64,000 bases of DNA from an uncultured Chloroflexia bacterium (GTDB taxonomy: Bacteria; Chloroflexota; Chloroflexia; Thermomicrobiales; UBA6265). Both the position numbers and the translations under genes were made by a program. A model generated the notes under the pieces. It made no database searches. It was not told the DNA's origin and saw only the letters and a list, made by a program, of their open reading frames with translations. Location of the stretch: the NCBI GenBank assembly GCA_963762985.1, contig CAVXMK010000014.1, positions 282,625 to 346,624 of the forward strand, read 5' to 3'. Positions 1 through 44,862 of this stretch are shown piece after piece. The first letter of the stretch is position 1; the number at the start of each line of letters is the position of its first letter.

Positions 1-1692
1 GCCCAGGGCGTCGCCGGGGCACCCGCCGAGGGCATGGATGGCCGCACCCGCGGCGAGGGCGGCGAGCTGAAACTGATCCAGTGGCAAGCCGCGAGCATGC
101 TCAGCCCCCACGTCTCCACCGGCGAGAAGGACTACCTCGCGGCGCAGCTTATCGTTGAGCCCTTGATGCACTACCTGCCCGACGGTTCGCTCATCCCGAA
201 CCTGGTGACCGAGGTGCCGTCGGTCGAAAACGGCATGCTCGCCGAGGACCTCACCAGCGTCACCTACACGCTGCTCGACGGCGTCCTCTGGTCCGACGGC
301 GAGCCGCTGACCGCCGAAGACGTCGTGTACACCTGGGAGTGGATCGTCGACCCGGCGAATGCGTCCGTGTCCTCCGGCGTCTACGGGGTCATCGAGTCGA
401 TGGAAATCATCGACGACATGACGGTGCAGGTCTTCTTCGCTGAGCCTAACGCCACCTGGTTCGTGCCGCATTCGGGTTCGGAATTCGGGTACGTCTATCC
501 CAAGCACGTGCTCGACGTCGAGGACGGGCAGGCCGCCAACGACGCGTTCCTCCTCAGCCCGATCGGCACCGGCCCGTACAAGATCACGTCCTTCTCGCCC
601 AACGACCAGGCCAGCTACGAAATCAACGAGAACTACCGCGACCCCAACAAGCCCTACTTCGCCACCGTGAACCTCAAAGGCGGCGGCGATGCGGCATCGG
701 CGGCCCGCGCCGTGCTGCAGACGGGCGACTACGACTTTGCCTGGAACCTGCAGGTCGAGCCTGAGGTTTTGCGCGAGCTGGAGCAGGGCGGCGCAGGCGT
801 CGTCAGCATCGCGCGCGGCAACTCGGTCGAGCGCATGATGCTCCAGTTTGCCGACTGGAAGACCGAAACCGACGGAGAGCTCGCGAGGCTGGGCACCACC
901 AACCCCATCATCGGGGACAAGGCCGTGCGCCAGGCGCTGAACCTGGCGGTGCAGCGCGACGTGATCTCCAACCAGTTGTACTCGGGCGAGGAGACCGAGC
1001 CGCCGACCGCCAACATCCTGACCGGCATGCCGACGATGGAATCGCCCAACACCTCGTGGGAGTTCAACGTCGAGGAGGCCAAGCGCATCCTGGACGAGGC
1101 CGGCTGGGTGATGGAGGGCGATGTTCGCGCCAAGGATGGCGTGGAGCTGAGCATCACCTACGTCACCTCGATCAACACGGTCCGCCAGAAGGAGCAGGCC
1201 ATCATCAAGCAGGCGCTCGACGAGATCGGGTTCCGCACCGAGCTGAAGCAAGTCGATGCCGCCGTCTACTTCGACAGCTCCGCGGGCAACGACCAGAACA
1301 TCAACCACTTCTTCAACGACATCGAGATGTATACCGACAATCCGACGAATCCCAACCCGATCGAGTACATGCTCAACTGGTACGCGGGACCAGACGGCGC
1401 GAACGTGGCTCAGGCGGGGAACGACTGGAGCCAGACGAACTACTCGCGCTACAGCAACCCCGCGTACGACGAGCTGTTCGATCAGGCGCGCCTGGAGACG
1501 GACCTCGAACTGCTGGCCGAGCTGTTCATCCAGCTCAACGACATCCTGATCGAGGACGTCGCGGTGATCCCCATCGTGAACCGCTCCTCCTCCACGCACG
1601 GCATCTCGACGACGCTGCAGGAGAACAACGTCGCCGCCAGCCCGTACGAGTACAACTACTGGAACATCGCGAACTGGAACCGCAAGGCGTAG
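1..1692 (+). CDS. ABC transporter substrate-binding protein, family 5 (DppA/OppA-like); 5' end lies outside the window
   Basis: ORF 34..1692 stays open back to base 1 and has no signal peptide, so the N-terminus is upstream. Family-5 SBP motifs are present (LTYTLLDGVLWSDGEPLTAEDVVYTWE, YSNPAYDELFDQA). Confidence 0.85.
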   Translation, partial: AQGVAGAPAEGMDGRTRGEGGELKLIQWQAASMLSPHVSTGEKDYLAAQLIVEPLMHYLPDGSLIPNLVTEVPSVENGMLAEDLTSVTYTLLDGVLWSDGEPLTAEDVVYTWEWIVDPANASVSSGVYGVIESMEIIDDMTVQVFFAEPNATWFVPHSGSEFGYVYPKHVLDVEDGQAANDAFLLSPIGTGPYKITSFSPNDQASYEINENYRDPNKPYFATVNLKGGGDAASAARAVLQTGDYDFAWNLQVEPEVLRELEQGGAGVVSIARGNSVERMMLQFADWKTETDGELARLGTTNPIIGDKAVRQALNLAVQRDVISNQLYSGEETEPPTANILTGMPTMESPNTSWEFNVEEAKRILDEAGWVMEGDVRAKDGVELSITYVTSINTVRQKEQAIIKQALDEIGFRTELKQVDAAVYFDSSAGNDQNINHFFNDIEMYTDNPTNPNPIEYMLNWYAGPDGANVAQAGNDWSQTNYSRYSNPAYDELFDQARLETDLELLAELFIQLNDILIEDVAVIPIVNRSSSTHGISTTLQENNVAASPYEYNYWNIANWNRKA

Positions 1693-1882: not shown

Positions 1883-2007
1883 GATGGTGGCCAGCCACCG
1901 CGAGCGCCTGCTCGCCGGGAAGAGAAGGAGTGCGGCCTGGGGGACGAGACGGCCCGGGTAGACCGCGGCGTCGTCTCCGTTGCCTCGGGCGGGGGAGCGC
2001 ATTTCAG

Positions 2008-3792
2008 ATGGACCAGTCGTCGTTCGACGAGTTAACACGTGTGCTTGGCGGAGCCGCATCGCGACGTCGTGCCCTGGGCGCGGTCATTGCCGCGGCGCTT
2101 GCCGGGAGAACGGCCGCGGAAATCATGGCCGCGCCCAGGAAGAAAGGCCGTGGCAAGGGCAAGGGTAAGGGCAAGAAAAAGAACAAGGGCCAGGGGAATA
2201 CTGGCAACGGGAATGACAATGGCAAGGGTAGCTGCGCCGGCTCGCCGCTGAGGCCCGGTCAGGACTTCCTGCGCTGCGATTTCTCCGGTCGAAACTTGCG
2301 GGGGCAGGATCTCCACTCCTCGTCGTTCAAGGATGTCGACTTTTCGTTCGCCGATCTCTGCGGCGTCGACTTTCACTCGGCGAGCTTCACCGAGACGGAC
2401 TTTATCGGAGCCAATCTCACCGACGCGAACTTCGACCAGTCCTCGCACGACGAAGTCAGCTTCGCCGAGGCGAATCTCGAAGGCGCCTCCTTCAAGGTGG
2501 CGACCTTCAGTGAGGTCGATTTCTCCGGGGCCAATCTCGCCCGCGCCAATTTCCGTGGCGCGACGCTCGACGAGGTCGATTTCTCCGGCGCTACCTTCTG
2601 CCAGACGATTCGGCCTGACGGCAGCACCGACAACCGCAATTGCGATATCTGCGACAACCTCTGCGGCACCTGCCAGAACTGCGACGAGGAGGACTGCGAA
2701 GCCCCCGACTGCTGCTCCGACCCGGAGACGGGCGACGGGGTATGCGTCGATACCGACACCGATCCACTGCACTGCGGAGCGTGCGGCGTGGCGTGCGGAG
2801 CCTCGTTGAACCCGTGCATCACCATCGAGTGCATCGATGCTGCATGCACCCCCGTCGAGGCCGCGGACGGCACGACCTGCGAGGAGGGCGAAGAGGCTGG
2901 CGTCTGCTGCGCCGCGGGCGATACGGTCACCTGCGTCGTCGGCGGCATCTGCTGCTCCAGCGCGCAGTGCGATGAGGGCGATACCTGCTGCAGCGGGCAG
3001 TGTGTCGATCTCCAGACCGATCCTGACAATTGCGGTGGCTGTGGCCCCGAGTTTGCCTGCGACGCAGGCGAAACCTGTTCCCAGGGCCAGTGCGTGTCGG
3101 ATGAGTGCGACAGCGGCGAAGTCCTCTGCGACAGCGTCTGCACGCCGGGCGTCTGCTGCGCGGATGACCAGTCCGGGCCGCAATGCCCCGCGGGGTTCAC
3201 CTGCATCGCCGGCGGCTGCGTCGGCGAGGGGCAGTTCCGCTTCGTGCTCAGGTGGGACGAGAACCCGCGGGATCTCGACACCCACGTCTGGTTGCCGCCA
3301 GCGACGCCGTACCACATCTATTTCGTCGACGAAGGCAGACTGGACCAGTTCCCCTTTGCGGAGCTGGACATCGACGACGTGACGAGTTTCGGTCCGGAAA
3401 CCGTCACGATCGCCCAATTGTTCGAGGGAACGTACCTCTACGCCGTGCACCTGTTCGCCGGCACGGGCACCATCGGCACGTCGGGCGCCGTGGTCGAGGT
3501 CTACGAGGGTGCGAACCTGGTCAACACCTTCCCTGTTCCCACGAACCTCTCCTGGGATCCGGACAACGGCCAGAACGTCTGGTGGAACGTCTTCAGCCTC
3601 ACCGTCGACGGGCAAGGGGACACGACGATCACCCCGATCAACACCGCCTCGGCGGATCCCGCGCCGTTCCCGGATACGCTGTCGCGTCGCGCCAGCGCCG
3701 AAAAATCCAAAAAGCCGGCCGATGGCGACCGCAACCGCAAGCGCGGCCGAGGCCGTGGCAAGGGCAAGAATCGGGGTCGTGCGCGGCGGTGA
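2008..3792 (+). CDS. Secreted multidomain protein: RR leader, polybasic tail, pentapeptide repeats, Stig1-like Cys modules, YfaP/DUF2135-like C-terminal domain, basic C-tail
   Basis: ATG at 2008 is preceded by GGGGGAG. Leader is MDQSSFDELTRVLGGAASRRRALGAVIAAALAG and the tail is KKGRGKGKGKGKKKNKG. A(D/N)LxG/F pentapeptide runs are present, along with the motif C-V-D-x-D-T-D-P-L-H-C-G-A-C-G-V-A-C. Start chosen inside track ORF 1930..3792. Confidence 0.85.
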   Translation: MDQSSFDELTRVLGGAASRRRALGAVIAAALAGRTAAEIMAAPRKKGRGKGKGKGKKKNKGQGNTGNGNDNGKGSCAGSPLRPGQDFLRCDFSGRNLRGQDLHSSSFKDVDFSFADLCGVDFHSASFTETDFIGANLTDANFDQSSHDEVSFAEANLEGASFKVATFSEVDFSGANLARANFRGATLDEVDFSGATFCQTIRPDGSTDNRNCDICDNLCGTCQNCDEEDCEAPDCCSDPETGDGVCVDTDTDPLHCGACGVACGASLNPCITIECIDAACTPVEAADGTTCEEGEEAGVCCAAGDTVTCVVGGICCSSAQCDEGDTCCSGQCVDLQTDPDNCGGCGPEFACDAGETCSQGQCVSDECDSGEVLCDSVCTPGVCCADDQSGPQCPAGFTCIAGGCVGEGQFRFVLRWDENPRDLDTHVWLPPATPYHIYFVDEGRLDQFPFAELDIDDVTSFGPETVTIAQLFEGTYLYAVHLFAGTGTIGTSGAVVEVYEGANLVNTFPVPTNLSWDPDNGQNVWWNVFSLTVDGQGDTTITPINTASADPAPFPDTLSRRASAEKSKKPADGDRNRKRGRGRGKGKNRGRARR

Positions 3793-3857
3793 GCCGACCG
3801 CGAGGCCATCGCCCCGCGCCTGCTCGATGACATAGCAGGAAGGCGACAGATCTGCCA

Positions 3858-3887
3858 CGAGGCCCGGGGAATGTTCCCCGGGCCTCG
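3858..3887 (+). terminator. Terminator-like hairpin shared with the paralog
   Basis: CGAGGCCCGGGGA-ATGT-TCCCCGGGCCTCG, a perfect 13-bp stem with no T-tract. An almost identical hairpin follows the paralog at 9097-9125. Confidence 0.6.
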
Positions 3888-3954
3888 GCGTGTTCGCGGA
3901 CAGGAGCCGTCGCGTTCAGCTCAATGGAATTCCGGGCCAGACTTCTGCCTGTCA

Positions 3955-4150
3955 GCAGCCCTTCTCCCCGCGCACTTGACAGGGGAGGTATCGAGTTGCC
4001 GGCGGCTGGCCCTCACCCCAACCGCCGAATGACCCTCACCCCAACCCCTCTCCCATTGCGATGGGAGAGGGGCTTTCGACGCTGAGTACCGGCGTCATAT
4101 AGCAATTACCTCTCCCTGTCAGCCCCGCGCACGGGAGAAGGGAGGGTTGA
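3955..4150. repeat. Mosaic of GC-rich palindromic intergenic elements
   Basis: Inverted copies of CCCTTCTCCC..TGACAGGG(G)AG(A)GGTA sit at about 3960-3992 and 4106-4141. Between them is the hairpin CCCTCTCCCA-TTGCGA-TGGGAGAGGG, part of a short variant of the CCCTCACCCCAACC element seen elsewhere. Confidence 0.6.
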
Positions 4151-4186
4151 CGTGGGGAGTGGTATGCAGAGGGAATGGAGACCGAT

Positions 4187-4213
4187 GGCGAAGGTTGCGA
4201 AGGTTGCGAAGGC
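4187..4213. repeat. 9-nt tandem repeat (GCGAAGGTT x about 3)
   Basis: GCGAAGGTTGCGAAGGTTGCGAAGGCT read directly. Confidence 0.6.
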
Positions 4214-4341
4214 TGGGGAACAGGGTGAGCGCGCAATCTTCGCACGAGGGCAAGGGGCGCCCCAGACCCGGTCCGCGTTTGCGGCACGGTTCATCCGCAT
4301 TCCGCGGTGCGCATTCGCGGGTTGACGCAGTGGCGATCCTT

Positions 4342-4349
4342 CCTGCGAA
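4342..4349. repeat. Target-site duplication, left copy (CCTGCGAA)
   Basis: The 8-bp direct repeat immediately flanks the IS left end. An identical octamer is at 5859-5866. Confidence 0.85.
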
Positions 4350-5858
4350 GTAAGAGTTCAGACCAAGGCAATTTGGGGAGATGGTCGTGGGGCGCGCAGG
4401 AGCGCGAGAAACTCCTCGACCGGGTCGAGGTCGCGCAGGGCCCAGGTGGCCACCAGCGAGTGCAAGAGCATGCGGGTGGTGCTGCCCGGCCCCGAGCGGG
4501 TGCCGCCGCTAATCTTGCGCGCCACCACCAGCGGGCGCAGGGCGCGCTCGGCGGCATTGTTGGTCGGGGGCACGGCCGGATCGGCGACGAAGGTGAACAA
4601 CTCGGCCTGATAGCGTTCGACGCGGGCGCACAGCACCGCCTGCGGGGTATCGGCCGGTTGCGCCCGGCAGTGGGCGACGAGCTCGGCCTGGAAGCGGTCG
4701 CGCGCCCGCTCGCGCAGGATGCCGTTCGTGCCCGCCGCCGTCGCCTCCGCCGCCCAGGCCACGGCGCGGTCGTAGACATCGCGCACCCCCGCCGCCCACG
4801 CCGCCACCCCCGGGTCGTCGGGATGGGCCAGGACCAGGTCATGGATGTCGCGCCACAGGTGCGCCCAGCACCGCTGCTGGACCCGCTCCAGCCGGTCGTA
4901 GGCCCCGAAAAAGTCGCTGACCACCACGCCCGTGCCCATCTCGCCCAGGAGGTCCTGCGCCACCGCCCCGGCGCGACTGCGCGCGAAGTGAAACACCTGG
5001 ATCGAGGGCGTGGTCAGCGTCCACACCCAGCCGGTGCGGCCGTTCTCGCGCCAACTCGTCTCATCGAGATGGACGACCGGGCTGGCCCGCGCCTCCCCCA
5101 GCAGCGCCTCGTAGGCCGGGCGTCCGGCCCGCGCCGCCTCCGCCAGCAGCGCGCTCAGCTCCCCCACCGACAGCCGCAGCCCCCAGACCCGCTGCAGCAG
5201 CCATTGCACCTGGGCCAGCGGCAGCCGCAGTTTGGTGCGCAGCGTCGCGACCCACGCCGCCACCGACCACCCCACCCGCCGGTGGGCGCCGGCCTGCTCC
5301 CCCAGATCCGGCATCGTCCCCCGGCTGCGCGTCCCGCAGCGGCGGCAGGTCCGCTCCAGCACCCGGTGCTCGACGACCGCAGCCCGCACCGGCGGCACCT
5401 CGATGAGCTGGCGGCGCCGCACCACCCGTCCCCGTGCCAGCGGGGCGGCACAGGCCGGACAGACCCTCGGCGCGTGCAGCACGATGCGGTCCGGACGCTC
5501 ACGGCGGCGCCCCGGCACGGGACGGCGCGGTCGCCGCGGCCGGCGCTGCTCGCGCACGACGACATTGGCCTTGACCCACGCGGGCGGACGTTTGGGCGGG
5601 GGAGCTGCGGGCGGCGACGGCCTCGCGCCCGCCTGGCCCCCCGCCGCGTGGTCGTCACCGCGCAGCGCGGCCACCTCGGCCCGCAGCGCGGCGTTCTCCG
5701 CGCTCAGTGCCTGCACCTGGGCCTGCAACTGCACCACCAGCTCCGCCAGTGCGTCGTAGCTGAGCCGCTCCGTGCCGCGGGTCATCTCCCGCCCCTTGCC
5801 CGTCCCTGCCGTGAGAACCGGCATTCTCCCACAATTTCGGGTCAGTCTGAACTCTTAC
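4350..5858 (-). mobile_element. IS66-family insertion sequence, single-ORF type, apparently intact (1509 bp)
   Basis: Perfect 14-bp terminal inverted repeats GTAAGAGTTCAGAC (4350-4363 and reverse complement 5845-5858). Subterminal similarity (..AATT.G.GGGAG), an 8-bp TSD and one complete transposase ORF. Confidence 0.9.
4358..5824 (-). CDS. IS66-family transposase
   Basis: N-terminal leucine-zipper-like LQAQVQALSAENAALRAEVAALR and zinc-finger CPACAAPL..CRRCG. Also HLDETSW, VVSDFFGAYD, QRCWAHLWRD and PPTNNAAERALRPLVVARK, all hallmark IS66 motifs recalled from memory. Confidence 0.9.
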   Translation of the reverse strand: MPVLTAGTGKGREMTRGTERLSYDALAELVVQLQAQVQALSAENAALRAEVAALRGDDHAAGGQAGARPSPPAAPPPKRPPAWVKANVVVREQRRPRRPRRPVPGRRRERPDRIVLHAPRVCPACAAPLARGRVVRRRQLIEVPPVRAAVVEHRVLERTCRRCGTRSRGTMPDLGEQAGAHRRVGWSVAAWVATLRTKLRLPLAQVQWLLQRVWGLRLSVGELSALLAEAARAGRPAYEALLGEARASPVVHLDETSWRENGRTGWVWTLTTPSIQVFHFARSRAGAVAQDLLGEMGTGVVVSDFFGAYDRLERVQQRCWAHLWRDIHDLVLAHPDDPGVAAWAAGVRDVYDRAVAWAAEATAAGTNGILRERARDRFQAELVAHCRAQPADTPQAVLCARVERYQAELFTFVADPAVPPTNNAAERALRPLVVARKISGGTRSGPGSTTRMLLHSLVATWALRDLDPVEEFLALLRAPRPSPQIALV

Positions 5859-5866
5859 CCTGCGAA
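5859..5866. repeat. Target-site duplication, right copy (CCTGCGAA)
   Basis: Identical to 4342-4349 and abuts the IS right end. Confidence 0.85.
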
Positions 5867-5894
5867 ATGGGCTGTCCTCAGTCCAGTGTTACCC

Positions 5895-5904
5895 GTGATA
5901 CGAT
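5895..5904 (+). promoter_or_regulatory. Candidate extended -10 promoter box (GTGATACGAT), paralog copy
   Basis: Same box and the same following GATGG-GGCCA..CACCGC.AGCGCC block as at 1873. The IS end lies only 37 nt upstream. Confidence 0.4.
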
Positions 5905-6034
5905 GATGGCGGCCATGCACCGCAAGCGCCGGGTCCGTGGGGAAGACGGACCGCGCGGCCAGGGGATGTGAGCCGGAATGTCGCGCGACGCGCGGCGCCG
6001 CCTCCGTTGGGACGGGTAGGGGGAGCGTATCCAG

Positions 6035-9000
6035 ATGGACAACGCTGCATTCGACCGGTTGGCGCGACTGCTGGGGAGCGGCGCGTCGCGGCGCCACACG
6101 TTGCGCGCGCTGATCACCGCGGCCCTGGTCGGGGGCACGGCCGACGAGCTGCTGGCCAAAGACAAGAAGAACCGCGCCAAGAACCGCAAGCAGGGCAACG
6201 ACCGGGACGGCAACAACGACAAAGACAAAGATAAGAACAAGGACCGGCGCAATGGCCGTGGCGGCCAGGCCAATGCCGAAGCGAAAAAGAAAAATCAGAA
6301 CAAGAACAAGCAGAAGCGCAAGAAGAAAAAGAAGAAGAACAGCAACGGCGGCAATAGCGGCGGCAACAGTTGCGCCGGAACCCCGCTGCAGCCCGGGCAG
6401 GACTTCGTCGATTGCGATTTCTCCGACGCCAATCTGCGCGGGGAGAATCTCAAAGGCTCCCTCTTCAAGAATGTCGACCTCACCGATGCCGATCTCTGCG
6501 GCGCCGATCTGGAATCGTCCAGCTTCGCCGACACTACACTGGTCGACGCCAATCTCACTGACGTCAACCTCGACTCGTCGTCGCACAGCAAGGGCGACTT
6601 CTCCGGCGCCAACCTCACCAACGCCACCTTCCGTGTCGCCACCTTCAGCAAGGTCGACTTCTCGGGAGCCGACCTCACCGGCGCCGACTTCACCGGCGCC
6701 ACCCTGGATGACACCGACTTCGCCGGCGCCGTCTTCTGCCGCACCATCCATCCCAACGGCAACGTCGACAACCGCGACTGCGACATCTGCGACAACGAGT
6801 GCGGTCTCTGCGAAGACTGCGACGACGAGGACTGCACCCCGCCCGACTGCTGCCCGAACCCGGAGGGACCAGGCGGCATCTGCGTCAATACCGACACCGA
6901 CCCGCTCAACTGCGGCGGCTGTGACGCCGCCTGCTTCACCAACCTGTCCAACGCCTGCGTCGATGGCGAGTGCGTCTGCGGCAACGAGCCGGAGTGCTCC
7001 GGTGGCGAGACCTGCTGCCGTGGCGAGGGCGGTGGCGCCACCCGCTGTATCGACACGGACACCGATCCCCTGCACTGCGGCGCCTGCGACGAGGCGTGCC
7101 TGATCCCCCTCAACCCATGCCTCTCCGTCGAGTGTCAGGGCGGTCAGTGCGTCGAAGTCGGCGCCGCGGACGGGACGCCCTGCGAACTCGAGGGCGACCC
7201 TGGCGTCTGCTGCGCCGCCGGCAGCTCCGTCACCTGCGTCGTCGGGACCGAATGCTGCTCCAACGCCCAGTGCGACTCCGGCGAGGCCTGCTGCGAAGGG
7301 CAGTGCATCGACGTCGAGGACGACCCCAACAACTGTGGCGGCTGCGACGTCATCTGCCTGACCCCGACAAACCCGTGCCTCACCAACGAGTGCATCGAGG
7401 GCGGATGCGTAGACGGGACGCTCTCGGACGGCACGGAGTGCGCGTTCGTTGACGACACCGGCGTCTGCTGCGCCTCGGGTGGGACCAGCACCTGCGTCTT
7501 CGGCGCTGAGTGCTGCACCGATGCGCAGTGCGGCACGGGCCAATCATGCTGTGGCGGCCAGTGTCTGAACACCCAGACCGACTTCGATCGCTGCGGGTCA
7601 TGCACCAACCAATGCCCGGCTACCAAGGCCGACGCCTGCGTTGGCGGGGACTGTGTCTGCGGCGAGGAGCCGGAGTGCAACGGCAACCAGACCTGTTGCC
7701 CCGGCGAGGGCGGCAATCCGGCCTCCTGCCTCAACCTCAATAACGACACCCTCAACTGCGGCGCCTGCGGATTCGCCTGCCTGATCCCAACGAACCCGTG
7801 CCTCGCCGTCGAGTGCCAGGAGGGCGGATGCGTCGAGGTGCCCGTACTGAATGGCTCGGCCTGCGCGGTGGGCGAAGTGGGGGGCATCTGCTGCGCCTCG
7901 GGCGAGACGTCCGCCTGCATCGTGGGGGCGGAATGCTGCGACAGCTCGGTCTGTGAGGCGACCGAAGCCTGCTGCGAAAATCAGTGCATCGACGTTCAGG
8001 ACAACTTCGACAACTGCGGTGAGTGCGGCAACAGTTGCACGGACTCGGTGAATCAATGTTTCCACCGCGACTGTGTCCAGGGCGAGTGCCAAACCCTCCC
8101 CGACGAGGATGGCGAGCCGTGCTTCGCGGGCGAAGAGGGCATCTGCTGCGCCTCGACCCCAACCACCTCCATCTGCATCGGCGGCGGCCAGTGCTGCACC
8201 GACCTCGAATGCCCGGAGGGCGATAGCTGCTGCGATAACACCTGCTTCGAGACCAGCTCCGATTTCGACCACTGCGGGGGCTGTGACGGCTGCGACCCCG
8301 ACTTGGCAGACACCTGCGTCGAGGGCACGTGCGTCTGCGGGACCACGGGAGCCGCATGCGGGGCCGGCGAGACCTGCTGCAACGGCCAGTGCGTCGACAC
8401 CGACACCGACACCGACAACTGCGGCACGTGCGGCAACGCCTGCGATCCCCCGTTGAACTCGTGCAATACCGTCCTGTGCCTCGAAGGTACGTGCAACAAC
8501 TTCGCGGACCCCGACGGCACGATCTGCGTGGAGGGTCAGGACGAGGGCGTCTGCTGCTTCGACGACAACGCCGCCGTCTGCCTGGCGGGCGCCCAGTGCT
8601 GCTCCGACTCCGGATGCGACGTCACCGAAGCCTGCTGCGACAACCAGTGCGTCAACCCCAATACCGACTTCGACCACTGCGGCATTTGCACGAACGCCTG
8701 CATAGAGGGGAAGGCCGACGCCTGCTTCAACGGCCAGTGCGTCTGCGGGTCCGAGTTCCAATGCTCGGAAACCGAGACCTGCTGCAACGGCCAGTGCGTG
8801 GACACCAGCAATGATCTTGAGAACTGCGGCTCCTGTGGCGAGACATGTGGTGCAAACGAAACGTGCGTCGAGAGCGGGTGCGTTTGCCCGGGCATCCCCT
8901 GCGAGGGTCAATGTCTGGCGGAAGGTCCCGACGTCTGCTGCCTCCTCGCCGACTGCGAGACTCGCCTCTGCTATTTGCTTCTCGGCTGCAACGGCAACGT

Positions 9001-9088
9001 CTGCGAATACCAACAGCTCGCCGACAACACCGATTGCGGCTTCGGCGGTACGTGTGAAGGCGGCGTGTGCATCGGGCAGTCTGAATAA
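6035..9088 (+). CDS. Giant secreted Cys-rich protein: RR leader, about 75-aa polybasic tail, pentapeptide repeats, about 10 Stig1-like Cys modules
   Basis: Leader MDNAAFDRLARLLGSGASRRHTLRALITAALVGG. Tail is KDKKNRAKNRKQG...KKKNQNKNKQKRKKKKKKNSNGG. The pentapeptide block is collinear with the 2008 paralog. The motif D-x-x-(N/H)-C-G-x-C-x-x-x-C occurs about 12 times. GGGGGAG precedes the ATG. Confidence 0.9.
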   Translation: MDNAAFDRLARLLGSGASRRHTLRALITAALVGGTADELLAKDKKNRAKNRKQGNDRDGNNDKDKDKNKDRRNGRGGQANAEAKKKNQNKNKQKRKKKKKKNSNGGNSGGNSCAGTPLQPGQDFVDCDFSDANLRGENLKGSLFKNVDLTDADLCGADLESSSFADTTLVDANLTDVNLDSSSHSKGDFSGANLTNATFRVATFSKVDFSGADLTGADFTGATLDDTDFAGAVFCRTIHPNGNVDNRDCDICDNECGLCEDCDDEDCTPPDCCPNPEGPGGICVNTDTDPLNCGGCDAACFTNLSNACVDGECVCGNEPECSGGETCCRGEGGGATRCIDTDTDPLHCGACDEACLIPLNPCLSVECQGGQCVEVGAADGTPCELEGDPGVCCAAGSSVTCVVGTECCSNAQCDSGEACCEGQCIDVEDDPNNCGGCDVICLTPTNPCLTNECIEGGCVDGTLSDGTECAFVDDTGVCCASGGTSTCVFGAECCTDAQCGTGQSCCGGQCLNTQTDFDRCGSCTNQCPATKADACVGGDCVCGEEPECNGNQTCCPGEGGNPASCLNLNNDTLNCGACGFACLIPTNPCLAVECQEGGCVEVPVLNGSACAVGEVGGICCASGETSACIVGAECCDSSVCEATEACCENQCIDVQDNFDNCGECGNSCTDSVNQCFHRDCVQGECQTLPDEDGEPCFAGEEGICCASTPTTSICIGGGQCCTDLECPEGDSCCDNTCFETSSDFDHCGGCDGCDPDLADTCVEGTCVCGTTGAACGAGETCCNGQCVDTDTDTDNCGTCGNACDPPLNSCNTVLCLEGTCNNFADPDGTICVEGQDEGVCCFDDNAAVCLAGAQCCSDSGCDVTEACCDNQCVNPNTDFDHCGICTNACIEGKADACFNGQCVCGSEFQCSETETCCNGQCVDTSNDLENCGSCGETCGANETCVESGCVCPGIPCEGQCLAEGPDVCCLLADCETRLCYLLLGCNGNVCEYQQLADNTDCGFGGTCEGGVCIGQSE

Positions 9089-10764: not shown

Positions 10765-10826
10765 GCCCCCCTCGCCCTGCGCACAGGGCCGGGTGCCCTC
10801 TGGGCGGCGGGGTTGGGGGGTGAGGC
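10765..10826. repeat. Copy of the AAGCCCC..GGGCCGGGTGCCCTCTGGGCGGCGG..GGGGTGAGG element
   Basis: Core GGGTGCCCTCTGGGCGGCGG at 10791-10810. The same core occurs at 15668, 19729 and 57207, and in reverse complement at about 57106-57125. Confidence 0.7.
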
Positions 10827-10971
10827 CGATCCACCGGTCCCGAAGTCATCACCAGCGGAGACTGATTCCGCCGCCCCTATTGTGACGACGCGTTCCGCCC
10901 CCTACACTCTTGAACGAAAGAAGGCAGGACTCAGCGACTCGCGGCCGGGTCTCGCGGGGGTGGCTGGCGGC

Positions 10972-11715
10972 ATGACCCAACGCGGCGACTTCGACGACCA
11001 GAACGGCATTACCCGGGCCGACGAGCCCGGCCGCTTCGCGCCGCGCCGCCTGCTCGGCGGGCGCCCGCTCTCCATGTACGCCGTGCTCATCGCCGGCGTC
11101 GGCGTGCTGGCGGCCCTGCTCGGCATCCTCATCGTCACCACCCGCGGCGACGAACCCCCGCCCATCACCTGCCTGCCGGTCACCCTGGAAGAAGGCGAAT
11201 CCCTCGTCCGCGCCGGGGAGGTCGGCCGTATCAACGTCCTTACCGAGCGCGGCAAACCGCAGACCGGCCCCATCGCCGTCACCCTCGATCTGAACAACGG
11301 CAGTTGCCGCGAGCTGCCGAAAGGCGTCGCCGCCCAGCGCGATCTCTACGTCGCCGTCGGCGTCGTCACCGTCCACAACCAGACCCAACCGGCCGACAAC
11401 CGCGTGCGCATCGTCTGGGAAGAGCAGGCCAATATCCCCCTGCCCCTGCTCGCCACTAACACCCCCACCCCACTCCCCACGAATACCCCGCTCCCCACCG
11501 CGACACCGGCGCCCCCAACCCCGACGCCCATTCCGCCCACCCCCACCCCCGAGCCACCGACTCCGACACCCGAGCCCCCGACACCAACCCCGGAACCTCC
11601 GACCCCGACCCCCGAACCCCCGCCCGCCACGCCGATGGCGGCGGTCGACGCCTCCACCCCCGAGGCGACGCCCAGGCGCACGGCCGAAGAGGCCACGCCG
11701 CAGGGTGAGGGGTGA
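10972..11715 (+). CDS. Membrane-anchored protein with Pro/Thr-rich C-terminal linker
   Basis: ATG at 10972 inside track ORF 10813. One TM segment (MYAVLIAGVGVLAALLGILIV), a small extracytoplasmic domain, then a (PTPTPEP)n low-complexity region. Confidence 0.6.
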   Translation: MTQRGDFDDQNGITRADEPGRFAPRRLLGGRPLSMYAVLIAGVGVLAALLGILIVTTRGDEPPPITCLPVTLEEGESLVRAGEVGRINVLTERGKPQTGPIAVTLDLNNGSCRELPKGVAAQRDLYVAVGVVTVHNQTQPADNRVRIVWEEQANIPLPLLATNTPTPLPTNTPLPTATPAPPTPTPIPPTPTPEPPTPTPEPPTPTPEPPTPTPEPPPATPMAAVDASTPEATPRRTAEEATPQGEG

Positions 11716-12641: not shown

Positions 12642-12711
12642 CGCGGCTGGGGTGACAGGCGCTGGGTAGCCGGCCATGGCCCGGACAGCGCAGGAGCAAG
12701 GGGGCGTAACC

Positions 12712-13815
12712 ATGGATGAGCAGCACGCGGACGACACAGCGCAGCGCGGCACGACCCGACGCGGCATCATCGCCGGCACCGCCGCCGCCCTCGTCGGGGC
12801 CATCGGGGCCACGGTGACCGGCGAGCCATCGTCCACTCAGGCGGCCAAGGGCCGCAATCGCCGCCGTCGCGACCGGGACCGGAATCGCAAAGAGAGCAAC
12901 GCCAACGCCACCGGAACCGGCGATGACGCGGGCAAGTCCGAGGCGAACGGTGAGGCCTCCCTCACCGCGGGCGAGACCGGCTCAAGCAACGCCGGGCAGG
13001 ACGGCACCTCCGGTGACGGAGGCCCTACCGGTCAATCCGGAACCAGCGGCGCCGGCGAAGGCGGTGCCAGCGGCTCCAGCACGCCTGGGTCCGGTGGCTC
13101 CGGTGGATCGAGCGCTGCCGGCGAGGGCGGATCGGCCGGAGCGGCGGGCGCGGGCGGAAGCAGCGACGGGGAGAGCGGAGCCGCCGGCGCGGCGGGCACG
13201 AGCGGCGTCGGTCAGGACGGCGCTCCCGGAACGGACGGCCAGGGCGGCGCCGGCGAAGGCGGTCAAGGGACGCCAAGCGGCGCGGGCCAGGCGGGGACCG
13301 GCGGCCAAGGCGAAGTCAGCACCGTCGTCCAGAGCGGCTCCGGTGAAGGTGGCGAGCCGGGCGCAACCGGCGCACCGGGCGCCAGCCAGACCAGCACCGG
13401 TGACAGCGGCACGGGCGAGGCCGGAGCCACCGGTCAACCTGGTGAGAGCCAAAGCAGCACCGGGGCCAGCGGCACGAGCCAGAGCGGCTCGTCCCAGAGC
13501 AGCACCGGCACCGCAGGCACGAGCCAAAGCAGCACCGGCCAGGGCGGCAGCGGCGCCAGCGGCTCCAGCCAGGGCAGCAGCGGCTCAGCGGGGCTGGGCG
13601 GAACCAGCCAGAGCGGCGCGAGCCAGGGCAGCTCCGGCTCCAGTGGCCAGGCGGGACAGGGCGGGCAATCGGGGACGAGCAACGGCAGCAGCACCAGCCA
13701 GAGCGGTGTCGGCACGCCCGGCGAGCCGGGCCAATCAGGCGACGCTGGCTCCAGCCAAGCGGGCGAACCCGGCCAATCGGGCAGCCAGGCGGGCGAATCC
13801 GGCACATCGGGCTAG
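12712..13815 (+). CDS. RR-leader protein with polybasic tail and about 290 aa of Gly/Ser/Thr/Ala/Gln-rich, partly G-x-x periodic sequence
   Basis: ATG at 12712 inside track ORF 12676. TTRRGIIAGTAAALVGAIGA leader and QAA|KGRNRRRRDRDRNRKESN tail. Stretches such as GEPGATGAPGAS, GEAGATGQPGES and GTPGEPGQSGDAGS follow. Confidence 0.65.
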   Translation: MDEQHADDTAQRGTTRRGIIAGTAAALVGAIGATVTGEPSSTQAAKGRNRRRRDRDRNRKESNANATGTGDDAGKSEANGEASLTAGETGSSNAGQDGTSGDGGPTGQSGTSGAGEGGASGSSTPGSGGSGGSSAAGEGGSAGAAGAGGSSDGESGAAGAAGTSGVGQDGAPGTDGQGGAGEGGQGTPSGAGQAGTGGQGEVSTVVQSGSGEGGEPGATGAPGASQTSTGDSGTGEAGATGQPGESQSSTGASGTSQSGSSQSSTGTAGTSQSSTGQGGSGASGSSQGSSGSAGLGGTSQSGASQGSSGSSGQAGQGGQSGTSNGSSTSQSGVGTPGEPGQSGDAGSSQAGEPGQSGSQAGESGTSG

Positions 13816-13910: not shown

Positions 13911-14201
13911 ATGGACGCGTGCGACGCGGACATCGAGCAGAGTCAGCGCACACGGCCAGGCAACTCGCGCCGCGCCGTCATCGCGGCCACGGCGGCGGCG
14001 TTGCTGGGGACTATGGGCGTTGTCGCCACCAGTGACATGACCGACGCCAGACGACGCGGCCGTAAGAGCAAGAATCGCAACAACAACCAGAGCAACGCCG
14101 TCAGCGTTGGCCAGGGTGGACCGGGCGGCGCCGGCGGCGCCGGTGGCAATGTCATCGTCAACTGCGACCCCGGCTTCACGAATTGCGAGATCGTTGATTG
14201 A
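13911..14201 (+). CDS. Small RR-leader protein with polybasic tail, Gly run and C-terminal two-Cys motif
   Basis: NSRRAVIAATAAALLG leader, TDA|RRRGRKSKNRNNNQSN tail, then GQGGPGGAGGAGGNVIVNCDPGFTNCEIVD. An alternative ATG at 13893 is equally possible. Confidence 0.6.
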   Translation: MDACDADIEQSQRTRPGNSRRAVIAATAAALLGTMGVVATSDMTDARRRGRKSKNRNNNQSNAVSVGQGGPGGAGGAGGNVIVNCDPGFTNCEIVD

Positions 14202-14248
14202 CCGCGCGGCCACGATGCCGTGACCCGCGCCAGACAAGGAACACCACG

Positions 14249-14677
14249 ATGAGCACCCGCACGCACCAACCCAACCCGCGGCCATCCGCCGCGCCGAGCA
14301 TCACCCGGCGCGGCCTCGTCGTTGCCGCGTCATCCAGTCTCGTCGCCCTGCTGGGTATTGCTGCCGATTCCGCAGGGACCGAAGCCCGGCGGCGGCGCGG
14401 CCGCAAAGGCAAAGGCCGCCACTCGTCCAGCTCGGCCACGGGCGGCTCCGGTGGCAGCGCCGGGCATGGCGGGACCAGCATCCCAGGGCTCCCAGGCAGC
14501 GGCGGATCGAACGGCTCCAGCGGTTCGTCCGGAACGAGCAACCCAGGCAGTCCGGGGGGCGGCGGCACCAACCCCGGCGGTGGGGGGACCCCTGGCGGTG
14601 CCCAGACCGGCACGCCCGGCGCGAACGGTCAATCGGACACCACCCCGACCGTTGGCACCCCGGGCGCTAGCGGCTGA
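14249..14677 (+). CDS. Small RR-leader protein with polybasic tail and Gly/Ser/Pro-rich body
   Basis: ATG at 14249 preceded by AAGGAA. ITRRGLVVAASSSLVALLG leader, TEA|RRRRGRKGKGRHSSSS tail, then GGSGGSAGHGGTSIPGLPGSGGSNGSSGSSGTSNPGSPGGGG... Confidence 0.65.
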   Translation: MSTRTHQPNPRPSAAPSITRRGLVVAASSSLVALLGIAADSAGTEARRRRGRKGKGRHSSSSATGGSGGSAGHGGTSIPGLPGSGGSNGSSGSSGTSNPGSPGGGGTNPGGGGTPGGAQTGTPGANGQSDTTPTVGTPGASG

Positions 14678-14856: not shown

Positions 14857-15333
14857 TCATCCAATCTCGAACGCAAACTCCCACTGCGGACTCTCGGCCG
14901 TGCTGCTCTTCGCCGCCGTCAGGCTCATCTGCCCGCTGGCCCCGGCGTAATCCCCGGTCCCCCCGGTGATGGCGAAGGCCCCCGTACCGTCGTCGTAAAA
15001 CGGCCCGGTCACCACCAACGAGCCGTGCTCCAGCGTGTTCGTGAACGTGCAGTCCCACGATTCGCCCACCACGGTGCGCATGCACGACCCATGGCTGCGC
15101 CCGACCAGATTGACGTTCTGATCGTCGTACAACTCGTTACTGAAAACCAGCGTGTCGCCCACCGAGTCGCCCTCGTCGCTGAGGTCGACCACCTGTTCAT
15201 CCGTGACGTGCTCGATCAAGACCAGCGTCTCCTGCGCCGCCGCGGGCACACCGCCGCGCACGCTGGTGAAGTAGCCCGCGAGCAGCAGGGCAAGCGTGGC
15301 GGCAACGGCGAGGAGCGCGCTATTCCGGGCCAT
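14857..15333 (-). CDS. Secreted dirigent / allene-oxide-cyclase-like beta-barrel protein
   Basis: ATG at 15333 preceded by GGGAGGGGAGG. Sec-type signal MARNSALLAVAATLALLLAG. Pattern D..GDS.GD.LVF...LYD....NLVG...G.C......W.C..T..L..GSL...G......G..AITGGTGDYAGA.G is typical of this fold, recalled from memory. Confidence 0.6.
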   Translation of the reverse strand: MARNSALLAVAATLALLLAGYFTSVRGGVPAAAQETLVLIEHVTDEQVVDLSDEGDSVGDTLVFSNELYDDQNVNLVGRSHGSCMRTVVGESWDCTFTNTLEHGSLVVTGPFYDDGTGAFAITGGTGDYAGASGQMSLTAAKSSTAESPQWEFAFEIG

Positions 15334-15539
15334 GATGACCTCCCCTCCCAGCCCAGGCTGGGAACGCATGCGCCGCGGACCTGGCACCGGTCGAATCTGC
15401 ACCGGGGTCCGGTGGCGTGCGCATCGTACGCCCAACATTGGTGCTGTCAAGTGGCGAATGGATTGGTAGTTCCATCCCGGAACCGATCTCGCCCCGACAA
15501 CGCCCCCTCATTCCCGGCTCCTCTCCCCTGGGACAACGG

Positions 15540-15805
15540 CGCGGGGAGCGCACCGCGGGCGCGGGACATACTCCCCCTCTCCCGGCTCGACCTGACAGGG
15601 GGAGGAATTGGGCTATGGCAACGTCGCGCGAGGCCAACAAGCCCCTCTCAGCCATCGCAATGGGCCGGGTGCCCTCTGGGCGGCGGTTGGGGTGAGGGTC
15701 GTTGGGGAGAGGGCTAGCCGCCGAGGACACGATACCTTCCCTTGTCAGCCGGGTCGACGGGCCGGGTGGCCTTTGGGCGGCGGGGCAGGGGGGTGAGGGT
15801 GGGGC
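15540..15805. repeat. Intergenic block built almost entirely of nested GC-rich palindromic elements
   Basis: Hairpin CTCCCCCT..AGGGGGAG. One full copy of CAACAAGCCCCTCTC..GGGCCGGGTGCCCTCTGGGCGGCGGTTGGGGTGAGGG at 15636-15698 and a diverged copy at about 15759-15802. Confidence 0.7.
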
Positions 15806-15841
15806 GCCGATCACTCACTTCATGACGCAACTTGGACTGGC

Positions 15842-16912
15842 TTACGCCGGACGGCTGTCCCAGCGGAAAAAACGCACCGCGATCACCATGGCGATGACGA
15901 ACGTCGCTAGCAGTGCCAGCAGATCGGTCCAGATGGCCGCCAGCCCGTTGCCGAACGTCATCGCCTCGCGCAACGCGTCGACCAGGTACGTCAGCGGCAA
16001 CACCCGCGTGATCGGTTGCAGCCAGACCGGGGCGTTCTCCATGCTGAAGAAAATCCCCGACAGGAACATCATGGGGAACGTCACCAGATTGGCGTAGCTG
16101 GCGGCGGTCTCGGCATTGGGCGCAATCCCGGAGATGGCAAACCCGATCGCGAGAAACGCCAACGCACCGGCGATGATTGCCACCAGCACGACGAGCAGAT
16201 TCCCGCGCAGATGCAGCCCGAACAGTCCCCACGCCATCCCTATGAGAGTCACCGCCTGCAAGCCAGCGATCAGCAACTGCGACAGCACCCGCGCCAGGAT
16301 GAACGAGGTCAGCGGAAACGGCGTCACCCGAATACGCCGCAGTATGCCCCGCTCGCGGTACGTGACAAACGCCGTGGCCAGCCCGATCACCCCGGAGTTC
16401 ATCAGGCTCATGGCCAGGATGCCGGGGGCGAATACATCCATGAACGACACTTCTTGCGCCGTCACCGGCCGCTGCTCGATGGCCAGCGGCGGCGGCCCCC
16501 CCGCCACGTCGAGCAGCGTCTGCCGCACCGCCCCGACCGCGATTTGCGCGGTCGGGCCCACCGTCGCGTTGTAATAGAGCACCACCGTGGGGAAGCCCTG
16601 TGCGTTCTGGTCCGCCCCGAACACGGCCACCACCCCGCGGTTGCCATCCTCCAACGCCCGCAGCTCGTCCGCCTCCTCCCCCTCGGCAACGCTAAAGCTC
16701 GGGTTCTCCCGCAGCGCGGCGACGACCCCCTCCCGATACGCTGACTCCGGACCCGCCACCCCGACATCGAACTCGACGCTCTGGCCCCGGCCGAAGATGA
16801 CGCCAAAAATCGCGATGAACAACGCCGGAAACGCCAGATTCCAGAAGAGCGCCGCGCGGTTGCGCAGACTCATCAGCACATTGGCGCGGACCATGGCGAA
16901 CAGGGGCGTCAT
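15842..16912 (-). CDS. ABC-2 type exporter permease
   Basis: Six-TM ABC-2 architecture with a large first extracytoplasmic loop (NRAALFWNLAFPALFIAIFGVIFG...). The start ATG at 16912 lies 1 nt after the ATPase stop. ATG at 16927 is also possible. Confidence 0.8.
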   Translation of the reverse strand: MTPLFAMVRANVLMSLRNRAALFWNLAFPALFIAIFGVIFGRGQSVEFDVGVAGPESAYREGVVAALRENPSFSVAEGEEADELRALEDGNRGVVAVFGADQNAQGFPTVVLYYNATVGPTAQIAVGAVRQTLLDVAGGPPPLAIEQRPVTAQEVSFMDVFAPGILAMSLMNSGVIGLATAFVTYRERGILRRIRVTPFPLTSFILARVLSQLLIAGLQAVTLIGMAWGLFGLHLRGNLLVVLVAIIAGALAFLAIGFAISGIAPNAETAASYANLVTFPMMFLSGIFFSMENAPVWLQPITRVLPLTYLVDALREAMTFGNGLAAIWTDLLALLATFVIAMVIAVRFFRWDSRPA

Positions 16913-16913
16913 G

Positions 16914-17909: not shown

Positions 17910-18104
17910 TGGGGCGTGCGGCGCGTGCAGGTGCAGGGTCGGTGCGCTCCTCGTGGCCCGGTGCGTGCGGGCAGTACTCTTGGTCGCGACTATAGCGGCC
18001 GGGCGGTCGTGATGACGAATGGCACGGCTTTTGCCGCAATCGTCCCGAACGCCGATGCGATGCCGGGACCAACGAGCAATGGGTCTGATGAAGGAGTTGT
18101 CCTG

Positions 18105-43487: not shown

Positions 43488-43619
43488 CGGCCGACCGGCT
43501 ACCGCGGGCAGAACTGATTGCGCTGATTTCTCGCGCGATTGCGCGTGGGCTGGGGATTCGTGCGCTCGACAGAACCGCGTTCCAGCGTGGCACCGAATCG
43601 CCCATGGGAAGGAATACCG

Positions 43620-44807: not shown

Positions 44808-44862
44808 TCGCGGTTGGAGGCGCCCACGGGCGCCCCGATGTCGGAAGCCTCAGGAGGACATT

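Follow-up and report, generated by a model that had tools for sequence, protein, structure and literature searches.

A predicted exported Thermomicrobiales protein joins a pentapeptide-repeat block to a mosaic array of cysteine-rich modules with Stig1-type heads

We analyzed a 64,000-nucleotide stretch of DNA (the window) from an uncultured Chloroflexia bacterium of the Thermomicrobiales (contig CAVXMK010000014.1, positions 282,625 to 346,624, forward strand). The subject of this work is one gene in it, referred to here as the target, which encodes a protein of 1,017 amino acids (aa). The product starts with a leader containing two adjacent arginines (RR leader) and a polybasic linker, continues with a pentapeptide-repeat block and a small acidic module, and ends in nine tandem cysteine-rich modules and a terminal knot. 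The initial annotation of this DNA, made from its letters and reading frames, had proposed the open reading frame (ORF) and, from a hand count, about 150 cysteines (about 15% of residues). Coordinates and length match exactly, and the precise count is 150 (14.7% overall and 18.9% across aa 256-1017). On balance, we favor the interpretation that the protein is an exported, envelope-tethered, disulfide-stapled acidic fiber, whose variable loops and conserved terminal knot would bind an external partner.

The target gene and its module architecture

The target is a real gene. Its GC content is 0.86 at third codon positions (GC3) and 0.53 at second positions (GC2), which is typical for coding sequence in this genome, and a GGGGGAG Shine-Dalgarno sequence lies 9 nt 5' of the ATG. 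Across seven independent full-length relatives, neither the start nor the Cys columns vary. The ratio of nonsynonymous to synonymous divergence (dN/dS) from a relative is 0.16 to 0.57 and stays below 1 throughout, and a protein database already holds an identical protein. The many overlapping ORFs on both strands across the locus are the usual artifacts of high-GC DNA. Scanning the surroundings of the gene for promoters and terminators yielded no signal beyond that expected from shuffles, and Rfam and tRNA scans of the 64-kb window returned no matches. The coordinates of all features are collected in Table 1.

The mature part (aa 113-1017) carries 158 Asp and Glu residues versus 15 Lys and Arg, for a net charge of −143, and contains 6 His and 29 aromatic residues; only 6 Lys and Arg fall within the 638-aa module array. 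Across the whole protein we counted 7 His, 2 Tyr, and 1 Met. Proteins of this genome that are predicted to be exported (peptide-binding proteins, a beta-lactamase-fold protein, and a PQQ propeller) are all acidic, with pI values of 4.2 to 4.5, and the cytoplasmic and membrane proteins of the window are not; habitat or envelope chemistry may be the cause. In charge, the target marks the extreme of this trend without departing from it. What sets it apart is its Cys content, the Cys share in other window proteins being 0 to 2%.

A pentapeptide block ahead of the modules had been proposed in the initial annotation, and this was borne out by Pfam (Pentapeptide, E = 2.8e-21; Pentapeptide_4, E = 3.3e-13), with scores for PF00805, PF13599, and PF13576 of 75.2, 49.9, and 37.2 bits, all above their cutoffs. 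PDB sequence searches matched this part only, to designed and natural pentapeptide proteins (E = 1e-18), and none of the Cys modules. The AlphaFold model of the full-length protein, built on a seven-sequence alignment, gives the region a predicted local distance difference test score (pLDDT) of 78 to 89 and places strands every 20 residues, at 123, 143, 163, 183, 203, and 223. Homology and model thus point to a canonical right-handed quadrilateral beta-helix at aa 113-235; the block also includes a conserved “FCRTI-P-G-x-DN” junction. Pentapeptide-repeat proteins of family PF00805, such as Np275/Np276, Rfr32, and the thylakoid-lumen protein TL15, have the same beta-helix, and several members are extracytoplasmic or lumenal, with function unknown. 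The target differs from them in its fused array of about 770 aa, predicted to be disulfide rich, which occurs just in the small clade P0001-P0012, P0128, and P0132.

For the Cys-rich region, we cut modules at the conserved first Cys and named them S (short), L (long), and T (terminal). The initial annotation had distinguished three types, A, B, and C, in the arrangement A-B-C-A-B-C-A-B-A plus a terminal knot. We found just two, S (49 to 55 aa, 10 Cys) and L (86 aa, 16 Cys). The separation of B from C is ruled out, as B-C pairs are as similar as B-B pairs and the pair formerly called B1-C1 (L1-L2) is the most similar in the protein, with 55% identity. As a layout the earlier arrangement stands, in the form S-L-L-S-L-L-S-L-S-T; as a regular, higher-order (A-B-C)n unit of evolution it does not. 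The S-L-L spacing recurs once, but no two modules within the protein exceed 55% identity, relatives have other orders, and the central block is a mosaic replacement.

The internal periodicity itself is clear. Cys autocorrelation peaks far above shuffles at lag 86, with 57 Cys-Cys coincidences versus 19.4 ± 3.7, and at lag 227 (55 + 86 + 86), with 51 versus 14.4 ± 3.2. Outside the cysteines, the four in-register L modules are 27 to 44% identical versus about 9% expected (z = 5 to 10 with Cys held fixed). Because the L modules share non-Cys residues beyond chance, they are true duplications rather than sequences with a common Cys pattern. At the DNA level, modules of the target are 61 to 73% identical to one another, and a tandem-repeat finder detected no arrays in the Cys region.

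Table 1. Target gene, its segments, and related features of the window (positions in nucleotides of the window; identities are at the protein level)
Feature	Position	Strand	Residues	Length (aa)	Cys	Remarks
Target gene	6035..9088	+	1-1017	1017	150	ATG start
RR leader	6035..6157	+	1-41			MDNAAFDRLARLLGSGASRRHTLRALITAALVGGTADELLA; SRRHTLR (S-R-R-x-x-L-R), then 12-residue hydrophobic stretch
Polybasic linker	6158..6370	+	42-112			Low complexity, K/R/N/D/G-rich, net +20
Pentapeptide-repeat beta-helix (predicted)	6371..6778	+	113-248		4	About 24 pentapeptides, six coils
Mini-module	6779..6880	+	249-282		8	Acidic; CDICDNECGLCEDCDDEDCTPPDCC...; kept in the paralog and all relatives
S1	6881..7045	+	283-337	55	10	Cys spacing 10,3,4,8,5,2,6,6,1; positional ortholog in 6/6 relatives, 75-95% identity
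L1	7046..7303	+	338-423	86	16	Cys spacing 10,3,4,7,5,5,11,9,1,8,6,1,5,6,1,4; orthologs in P0002 and P0003, 95-97%
L2	7304..7561	+	424-509	86	16	Orthologs in P0002/P0003, 86-90%; alone, Pfam Stig1 20.4 bits, on junction and head
S2	7562..7726	+	510-564	55	10	Mosaic central block begins; best match in relatives 62%
L3	7727..7984	+	565-650	86	16	Best matches not in positional neighbors but in the first L module of P0004 and of P0005 (63-65%)
L4	7985..8242	+	651-736	86	16	One Cys displaced by one position; most divergent L module; best matches 58%, in P0006 and P0007
S3	8243..8389	+	737-785	49	10	Mosaic central block ends; best match 71%, within a composite module of P0007
L5	8390..8647	+	786-871	86	16	98% identity to sixth module of P0002; alone, Pfam Stig1 25.1 bits, above cutoff
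S4	8648..8794	+	872-920	49	10	Orthologs in P0002-P0004, 82-84%; alone, Pfam Stig1 27.8 bits, above cutoff
T	8795..9088	+	921-1017	97	18	Stig1-type head plus distinct C-terminal knot, and stop codon; 90% identity in P0002; Cys columns invariant in all 7 relatives
Upstream paralog	2008..3792	+		594		ORF 1930..3792, read from Met at nt 2008; cassette gene
IS66-family insertion sequence	4350..5858	−				Single ORF, 1509 bp; DDE_Tnp_IS66, E = 9e-43
Cassette gene	12676..13815	+				RR leader and polybasic linker
Cassette gene	14198..14677	+				RR leader and polybasic linker
Stig1-type head, NHL protein 1	43866..43919	+				Cassette gene ~43617..44807; motif scan; Pfam Stig1 31.3 bits plus NHL repeats
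Stig1-type head, NHL protein 2	45100..45153	+				Cassette gene ~44863..46095; motif scan; Stig1 27.1 bits
Stig1-type head, NHL protein 3	46323..46376	+				Cassette gene 46092..47345; motif scan; Stig1 29.4 bits

Homology of the modules and their predicted fold

The initial annotation compared the module core with the plant and bacterial Stig1 repeat. The core comparison held, with a significant match of the whole protein to Pfam PF04885 Stig1 (35.2 bits, E = 1.7e-8, cutoff 24.1, three stretches), but the term “Stig1-like modules” overstated it, as only the junction and head of a module are covered. Whether the whole protein or single modules are scored, the match stays within profile positions ~36 to 83 of 85 (mostly ~42 to 82), about half of the model, and the signal falls on the junction and head “CC-x3-C-[VIL]-[DN]-x3-D-x3-C-G-x-C-x3-C...”. 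Two of the 10 modules exceed the cutoff when scored singly, four are sub-threshold, and four are silent. The protein is a member of Pfam Stig1 by score, but not by coverage or architecture. A second family, NCBIfam NF041328 (MXAN_6577-like), reaches 76.6 bits over aa 231-372, a stretch that contains the mini-module; with a cutoff of 100, the target is related to this family and not a member. Pfam scans gave no match to granulin, EGF, zinc-ribbon, or other Cys-rich families.

We then built a hidden Markov model (HMM) from 17 L modules and searched it exhaustively against 1.84 billion cluster representatives. There were 422 clusters at E ≤ 1e-3. Among those listed, a complete or nearly complete L module (profile 1-84 to 1-86) was present in five, P0006, P0128, P0008, P0132, and P0162, four of which are pentapeptide or Thermomicrobiales-type relatives. 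Nearly all other matches comprised the head alone (positions 1 to ~30-55), and the 10 best matches, when re-scanned, were all Pfam Stig1 positive over the same profile region. Homology of entire modules to Stig1 is not supported; the complete L tail occurs in just a few of these clusters. A scan of a genome collection matched distant Myxococcota and proteobacterial metagenome-assembled loci only. These sequence comparisons indicate that the head is a cross-kingdom STIG1-type unit, and that two features set a small family apart, namely the CVC and CC doublets that elaborate S and the 31-aa CC-ladder that forms the tail of L.

Heads of this type occur in three other settings, each of which resembles the target in part. 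Plant STIG1/GRIM REAPER proteins (PF04885) are secreted and Cys rich, as is predicted for the target, and share with it the core “CC-x3-C-[VIL]-D-x3-D-x2-[NH]-C-G-x-C-G-x2-C-x5-7-C-x4-C”. They are single-domain proteins of about 15 kDa, whereas the target has 1,017 aa with ten heads and family-specific extensions. STIG1 is an extracellular ligand that binds the LePRK1/2 ectodomains and phosphatidylinositol 3-phosphate [PI(3)P] (PMC6275014). No such receptor kinase context is known in bacteria. Stig1-repeat proteins of Myxococcota and related bacteria (e.g., P0023/P0121 = MBK07743.1, P0119, P0134, and P0162) are large exported proteins with tandem heads, up to dozens of them, and such bacterial proteins are often fused to beta-propeller-type domains, like the NHL proteins of our window; all are uncharacterized. 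Their units are about 43 aa with 8 Cys, without the CVC/CC doublets of S and the CC-ladder tail of L, and their arrays have lipoprotein or Sec signals and neither an RR leader with polybasic linker nor a pentapeptide domain. The third setting is fungal. The best L-profile matches outside the family, P0127, P0129, P0130, and P0131, are eukaryotic, apparently fungal, secreted proteins with 16 to 38 Stig1-type units, and they end in a CPL1-like domain (PF21671), which is absent from the target. In these fungal proteins, the match to the L profile is limited to the head, positions 1 to ~55. A known CPL1-like protein, Cryptococcus neoformans Cpl1, is a secreted Cys-rich effector acting via a host receptor (bioRxiv 10.1101/2021.09.02.458767). 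This host-effector biology has no evident counterpart in a free-living Thermomicrobiales bacterium. The comparison with STIG1 and Cpl1 can suggest how the target may work, and nothing closer than that.

For the fold, we modeled a di-module (aa 504-665, S2-L3 with both junctions) with AlphaFold on an alignment of 11 S-L pairs. The mean pLDDT was 86.7 (S2, 91 to 95; L3 head and middle, 85 to 94; L3 tail, 70 to 82), and the model consists entirely of beta-hairpins, so that the modules are predicted to be ordered units. In the full-length model, each L module shows the same succession of hairpins, and a hairpin also spans each module cut, e.g., strands 417-420 and 423-426 flanking C424. This implies that the modules interlock into a continuous rod, which in turn would explain why the Pfam Stig1 register straddles module boundaries. 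Foldseek searches with the di-module reached best E values of 4 against the PDB and 0.37 against viral models, neither of them significant. The only weak neighbors were VWC, MUC2, MUC5AC, and Notch EGF. Granulins, EGF arrays, and the mucin and von Willebrand factor (VWF) C/CysD modules are likewise stacks of beta-hairpins with doubled-Cys ladders, and such eukaryotic disulfide-rich rods are protease resistant and extracellular. We regard this as a functional analogy, as they have no significant sequence or fold similarity to the target.

Module turnover and genomic neighborhood

Six full-length relatives (P0002-P0007; 846 to 1,050 aa) were found, all metagenomic. Their module order and content differ from those of the target; orders include S-L-L-S-S-L-S-L-T, S-L-L-S-S-L-S-S-X-T, S-L-L-S-S-L-S-T, and S-S-S-S-L-X-L-L-T, among others. 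Two further proteins, P0012 and P0128, end in a C terminus similar to T. Modules 1 to 3 and 8 to 10 of the target have positional orthologs in P0002/P0003 with 82 to 98% identity. To the same relatives, the central block (aa 510-785) shows no more than 58% identity, and its best partners are scattered over other positions and other relatives. Recent tandem amplification or concerted evolution was ruled out, since there are no tandem arrays, inter-module DNA identity is 61 to 73%, and the best match of a module within the protein is at most 55% versus 82 to 98% for orthologous modules in relatives. On these sequence data, the target gene is a mosaic of old modules with a mosaic insert at its center.

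Silent divergence is consistent with this. We compared the window with locus L004 over region 1944..9088. The upstream paralog of the target has a synonymous divergence (dS) of 0.08 (95% aa identity) and the leader plus pentapeptide part of the target 0.16 to 0.22. The module array has a dS of 0.45 to 0.64, at 64 to 67% identity with 199 gap columns and the dN/dS given above. A five- to eightfold excess of silent divergence beside a slowly diverging paralog implies module replacement or recombination. In a further locus, the ENA metagenome contig L005, the syntenic slot is occupied by a relative of 367 aa, in which the shared front end is joined to a short Cys region and a Pro/Thr linker. The family thus keeps its front end (leader, linker, and pentapeptide helix) and varies its Cys-rich rear.

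The paralog has the same general layout, with leader, polybasic linker, pentapeptide block, mini-module, one L module, and further Cys-rich sequence. It ends in a C-terminal domain of about 150 aa (~3235..3700, aa ~435-590; FRFVLRWDENPRDLDTHVW...LDIDDVTSFGPETVTI...) followed by a polybasic C-tail. This domain had no Pfam or PDB sequence match; a likeness to DUF2135/YfaP-type beta-sandwich domains was considered, could not be confirmed, and was dropped. In L004, the paralog adjoins the ortholog of the target, and the two form a conserved gene pair. In our window they are separated by an insertion sequence, which ends 177 bp upstream of the target ATG. Hallmarks of IS66 elements are a DDE_Tnp_IS66 transposase, inverted repeats beginning with GTAA, and about 8 bp of duplicated target site. 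This element has the transposase and perfect 14-bp terminal inverted repeats (GTAAGAGTTCAGAC, at 4350-4363 and 5845-5858), and we assign it to the IS66 family. L004 is collinear across the empty site with an overlap of about 7 bp, consistent with a target-site duplication. The insertion may separate the target from its native promoter.

Farther along the window (43539..47345), three tandem genes encode six-bladed NHL propellers, each with a leader, a polybasic linker, and one Stig1-type head. The initial annotation had placed one Stig1 module after the polybasic stretch in each NHL protein and considered the module shared with the target; we found it in all three (27 to 31 bits) and, in addition, in the upstream paralog. 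For NHL gene 2, a GGAGG Shine-Dalgarno sequence 6 nt before GTG 44863 makes this the most likely start, rather than the long-ORF start at 44587. The NHL-Stig1 fusion recurs in about eight metagenomic relatives.

The leader connects these genes. In the target it is the most conserved segment of the protein, with 28 of 41 positions invariant among seven relatives that are otherwise 55 to 88% identical to the target. A cassette of the form “F..L.R.L....(S/T)RR..L”, followed by a short hydrophobic core and a polybasic K/R/G/N linker, begins at least seven genes of the window (Table 1). Their cargoes are unrelated (pentapeptide block with Cys modules, NHL propellers, and G/S-rich low-complexity sequence), and the leader is conserved more than the cargo. 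The same leader type is present on the relatives P0132 and P0162, and in P0162 it ends in “ALA-S” right before the Stig1 repeats. The shared cassette may be a lineage-specific export or anchoring signal. The linker varies in length among relatives, has a pLDDT of 26 to 30 and no secondary structure in the full-length model, and holds short tandem DNA repeats at 6213-6339.

Several other genes nearby are recorded here. Those at 12676..13815 and 14198..14677 continue after the cassette with long G/S/T/Q/A-rich low-complexity sequence and cause an AT-skew peak of 0.34 at 12 to 14 kb. In Thermomicrobium roseum, Gly, Pro, Glu, and Ala are reported to be abundant in the major wall protein, to which no gene has been matched (PMC2615216); the two products could be candidates for wall-matrix proteins. 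The product of a 300-aa ORF at 10813..11715 (+) is predicted to cross the membrane once and carries a long Pro/Thr repeat tail of the PTPEPPTPT type, which resembles the end of the small family member in L005. Synteny with L005 covers 34..1692 and 14857..18152 of the window. In L005, SBP_bac_5 is followed by the paralog and the 367-aa relative with its Pro/Thr-rich tail, then by several small unknown ORFs, and last by a Dirigent/allene-oxide-cyclase-like protein, whose gene adjoins those of an ABC-2 permease and an ABC ATPase.

Cysteine state, export, and proposed function

All Cys columns of the modules are invariant (10 in 26 S modules and 16 in 23 L modules), while most other columns vary. 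The number of Cys is even in every module class (4, 8, 10, 16, 18, 20, 22, or 24), and the totals of seven full-length proteins are even as well (150, 134, 150, 118, 158, 138, and 120). Arrays of the same head in Myxococcota have lipoprotein-type signals and those in fungi have signal peptides, so the module type is extracytoplasmic elsewhere. Cys invariance, even counts, the poor fit of 10 Cys to Cys4 sites, the near absence of His, a beta fold predicted without ligands, and the export signals on distant arrays all favor disulfides. We infer that the Cys of the array are paired in about 73 disulfides.

Instead, the protein could be a polyanion that binds metals or other cations for sequestration, for buffering, or as a mineral- or ion-binding surface layer. 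In one version, the CC, CxC, and CGxC clusters would take up Zn, Cu, Cd, or Fe-S in the cytoplasm before folded export by the twin-arginine translocation (Tat) pathway; in another, the D-x-D-x-D loops of the heads would bind Ca2+. An array with 19% Cys in metallothionein-like CC, CxC, and CxxC spacings, an RR-type leader as is typical of cofactor-loaded Tat cargo, the charge of the mature part, and head loops of the form “DTDTDxxNC” are what one would expect from such a protein, and it would remove the conflict between Tat export and disulfides. However, neither 10 (S) nor 150 (total) is divisible by 4, and the strict even parity fits pairs. There is almost no His, and acidity is general among exported proteins of this genome. 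Pfam and NCBIfam scans of the target found no metal-binding family, and Sec or lipoprotein signals precede the homologous arrays of other organisms. Neither regular structure nor aromatic residues are features of metallothioneins; here we found confidently predicted, ordered beta-hairpins in a model without metals, 29 aromatics, and 10-Cys modules that cannot be divided into tetrads, which places the target outside this class. We consider a metal-binding role unlikely.

A disulfide-stapled exported fiber accommodates these observations better, and we propose the following mechanism. The conserved RR leader would direct secretion, most likely by the twin-arginine route. We propose this route because of the motif, the short hydrophobic core, and the strongly basic region after it, and a basic region in this position disfavors Sec export. 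The linker of about 70 residues (+20), predicted to be disordered, would serve as a flexible tether and may bind anionic wall or membrane components electrostatically. The six-coil pentapeptide beta-helix would then form a rigid base, on which the mini-module, the nine S and L modules, and the 18-Cys knot would continue as an all-beta hairpin rod stapled by disulfides. In the model, the junction “...CC-x3-C-x-D...” is itself a hairpin, which suggests interlocked modules and not beads on a string. The rod would present a very acidic surface, with a module content that shifts between strains by block replacement and indels while the Cys remain fixed. STIG1 and CPL1 suggest by analogy that array loops and the terminal knot may bind a macromolecule or a cation-coated surface, and the protein would act as a heat- and protease-resistant adhesin or ligand-display fiber in a protein-rich wall, such as this order typically has. 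Two proteins of the window share clusters of at least 90% identity with NCBI proteins from Thermomicrobiales bacteria, which places the window in this order. Cultured Thermomicrobium has a protein-dominated wall and no outer-membrane machinery (PMC2615216). The proposal builds directly on the architecture, the head homology, the fold class and interlock, the Cys invariance and parity, the mosaic evolution, and the host order; the export route, the disulfides, the tethering, and the binding would follow from them.

Several points weigh against this proposal. We identified no binding partner, sortase signal, or wall-binding domain for the target, and its neighbors (the peptide-binding protein, the Dirigent-like protein, and the ABC-2 exporter) offer no functional link. 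Tat signals combine an S/T-R-R-x-F-L-K-type motif with a short, moderately hydrophobic core; the leader of the target shows SRRHTLR and a 12-residue core. The TAT-signal HMMs TIGR01409 and PF10518 do not match the leader of the target, nor those of the paralog and two NHL proteins; the P0162 leader, with 15.1 bits against a cutoff of 16.7, is sub-threshold. Folded cargo is the norm for Tat, and the cytoplasm is a reducing environment, so if export is by Tat, a cargo with about 73 disulfides is problematic. The full-length model has low confidence (pLDDT 60 overall), falling below 50 in the mini-module and in part of the terminal knot (aa 954-1004). The high dS of the array could be due in part to mis-paired paralogous modules in the alignment, although mis-pairing of nonorthologous modules leads to the same conclusion of module replacement. 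Finally, literature searches for bacterial Stig1 and MXAN_6577 returned no relevant papers.

Another option is a polyprotein precursor that, once exported, would be cut up to release individual small peptides rich in disulfides, which could serve as toxins, antimicrobials, or signals. Plant GRI is processed to an active peptide. Tandem small units resembling Cys knots would suit such a precursor, a variable number of modules is typical of multicopy peptide precursors, and plant STIG1-family proteins act as processed peptides (PMC6275014). Our data make this very improbable for the target: there are no linkers or spacers between modules and no conserved cleavage motif, Lys and Arg are nearly absent from the array, and modules at most 55% identical are not copies of one peptide. 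In addition, cleavage at a junction would break the fold, as the junction hairpin is shared by neighboring modules.

Even less probable is a cytoplasmic DNA mimic of the Qnr/MfpA kind with zinc-ribbon-like Cys arrays, in which the leader would be no signal at all. The best-characterized pentapeptide proteins are indeed cytoplasmic, the PDB matches include QnrB1, MfpA, and McbG-like proteins, the leader fails the TAT HMMs, and a +20 segment is hard to translocate. On the other hand, the RR motif and hydrophobic stretch are conserved and shared with the NHL propellers, and in P0162 an Ala-x-Ala site immediately follows a leader of the same type. A location outside the cytoplasm is common among pentapeptide proteins, the top matches including large surface-type proteins with PEP-CTERM, cadherin, or Calx-beta domains, and no zinc-ribbon family was matched. 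That the target is no gene, but a chance ORF as high-GC DNA yields them (several overlap it on both strands) or an assembly chimera of repeats, which are prone to misassembly, is effectively refuted already by the codon-position GC, the Shine-Dalgarno sequence, the independent relatives, the dN/dS, and an inter-module DNA identity too low for assembly collapse.

A speculative extension of the exported-fiber proposal, to which we give only a small chance, joins it to the neighboring genes. The RR leader and polybasic linker would be an export-and-anchoring cassette of Thermomicrobiales, which delivers to the protein-dominated wall cargo that is folded (maybe oxidized or metal loaded in the cytoplasm) or very acidic, and the Cys array would be a recombination-driven hypervariable surface fiber. 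If true, this would be a bacterial analog of variable surface-antigen or receptor-binding arrays, and phages or predators might supply the selective pressure; its scaffold of about 73 disulfides would stay fixed while module cassettes are swapped between strains.

Large exported proteins with tandem Stig1-type units are already known from databases (Myxococcota and fungi), where they are uncharacterized. What is new is the fusion of a pentapeptide helix to a Stig1-type array, the two elaborated module types, the RR-leader/polybasic cassette, the mosaic evolution, and a di-module fold that is confidently predicted and has no solved counterpart. No major paradigm is changed, and we regard the value of the finding as moderate. 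The target is an extreme bacterial case of the STIG1 type, with ten heads and 150 Cys, and it gives a clean, alignable definition of S and L. In this light, the plant STIG1 “domain” appears as one unit of a repeat spanning bacteria, fungi, and plants. An RR-type leader on a cargo with about 73 predicted disulfides is a test case for export and oxidation in monoderm-like Chloroflexota. Taken together, a fixed Cys scaffold with fast module turnover beside a slowly evolving paralog makes this family a tractable case of how surface-protein cassettes may evolve.

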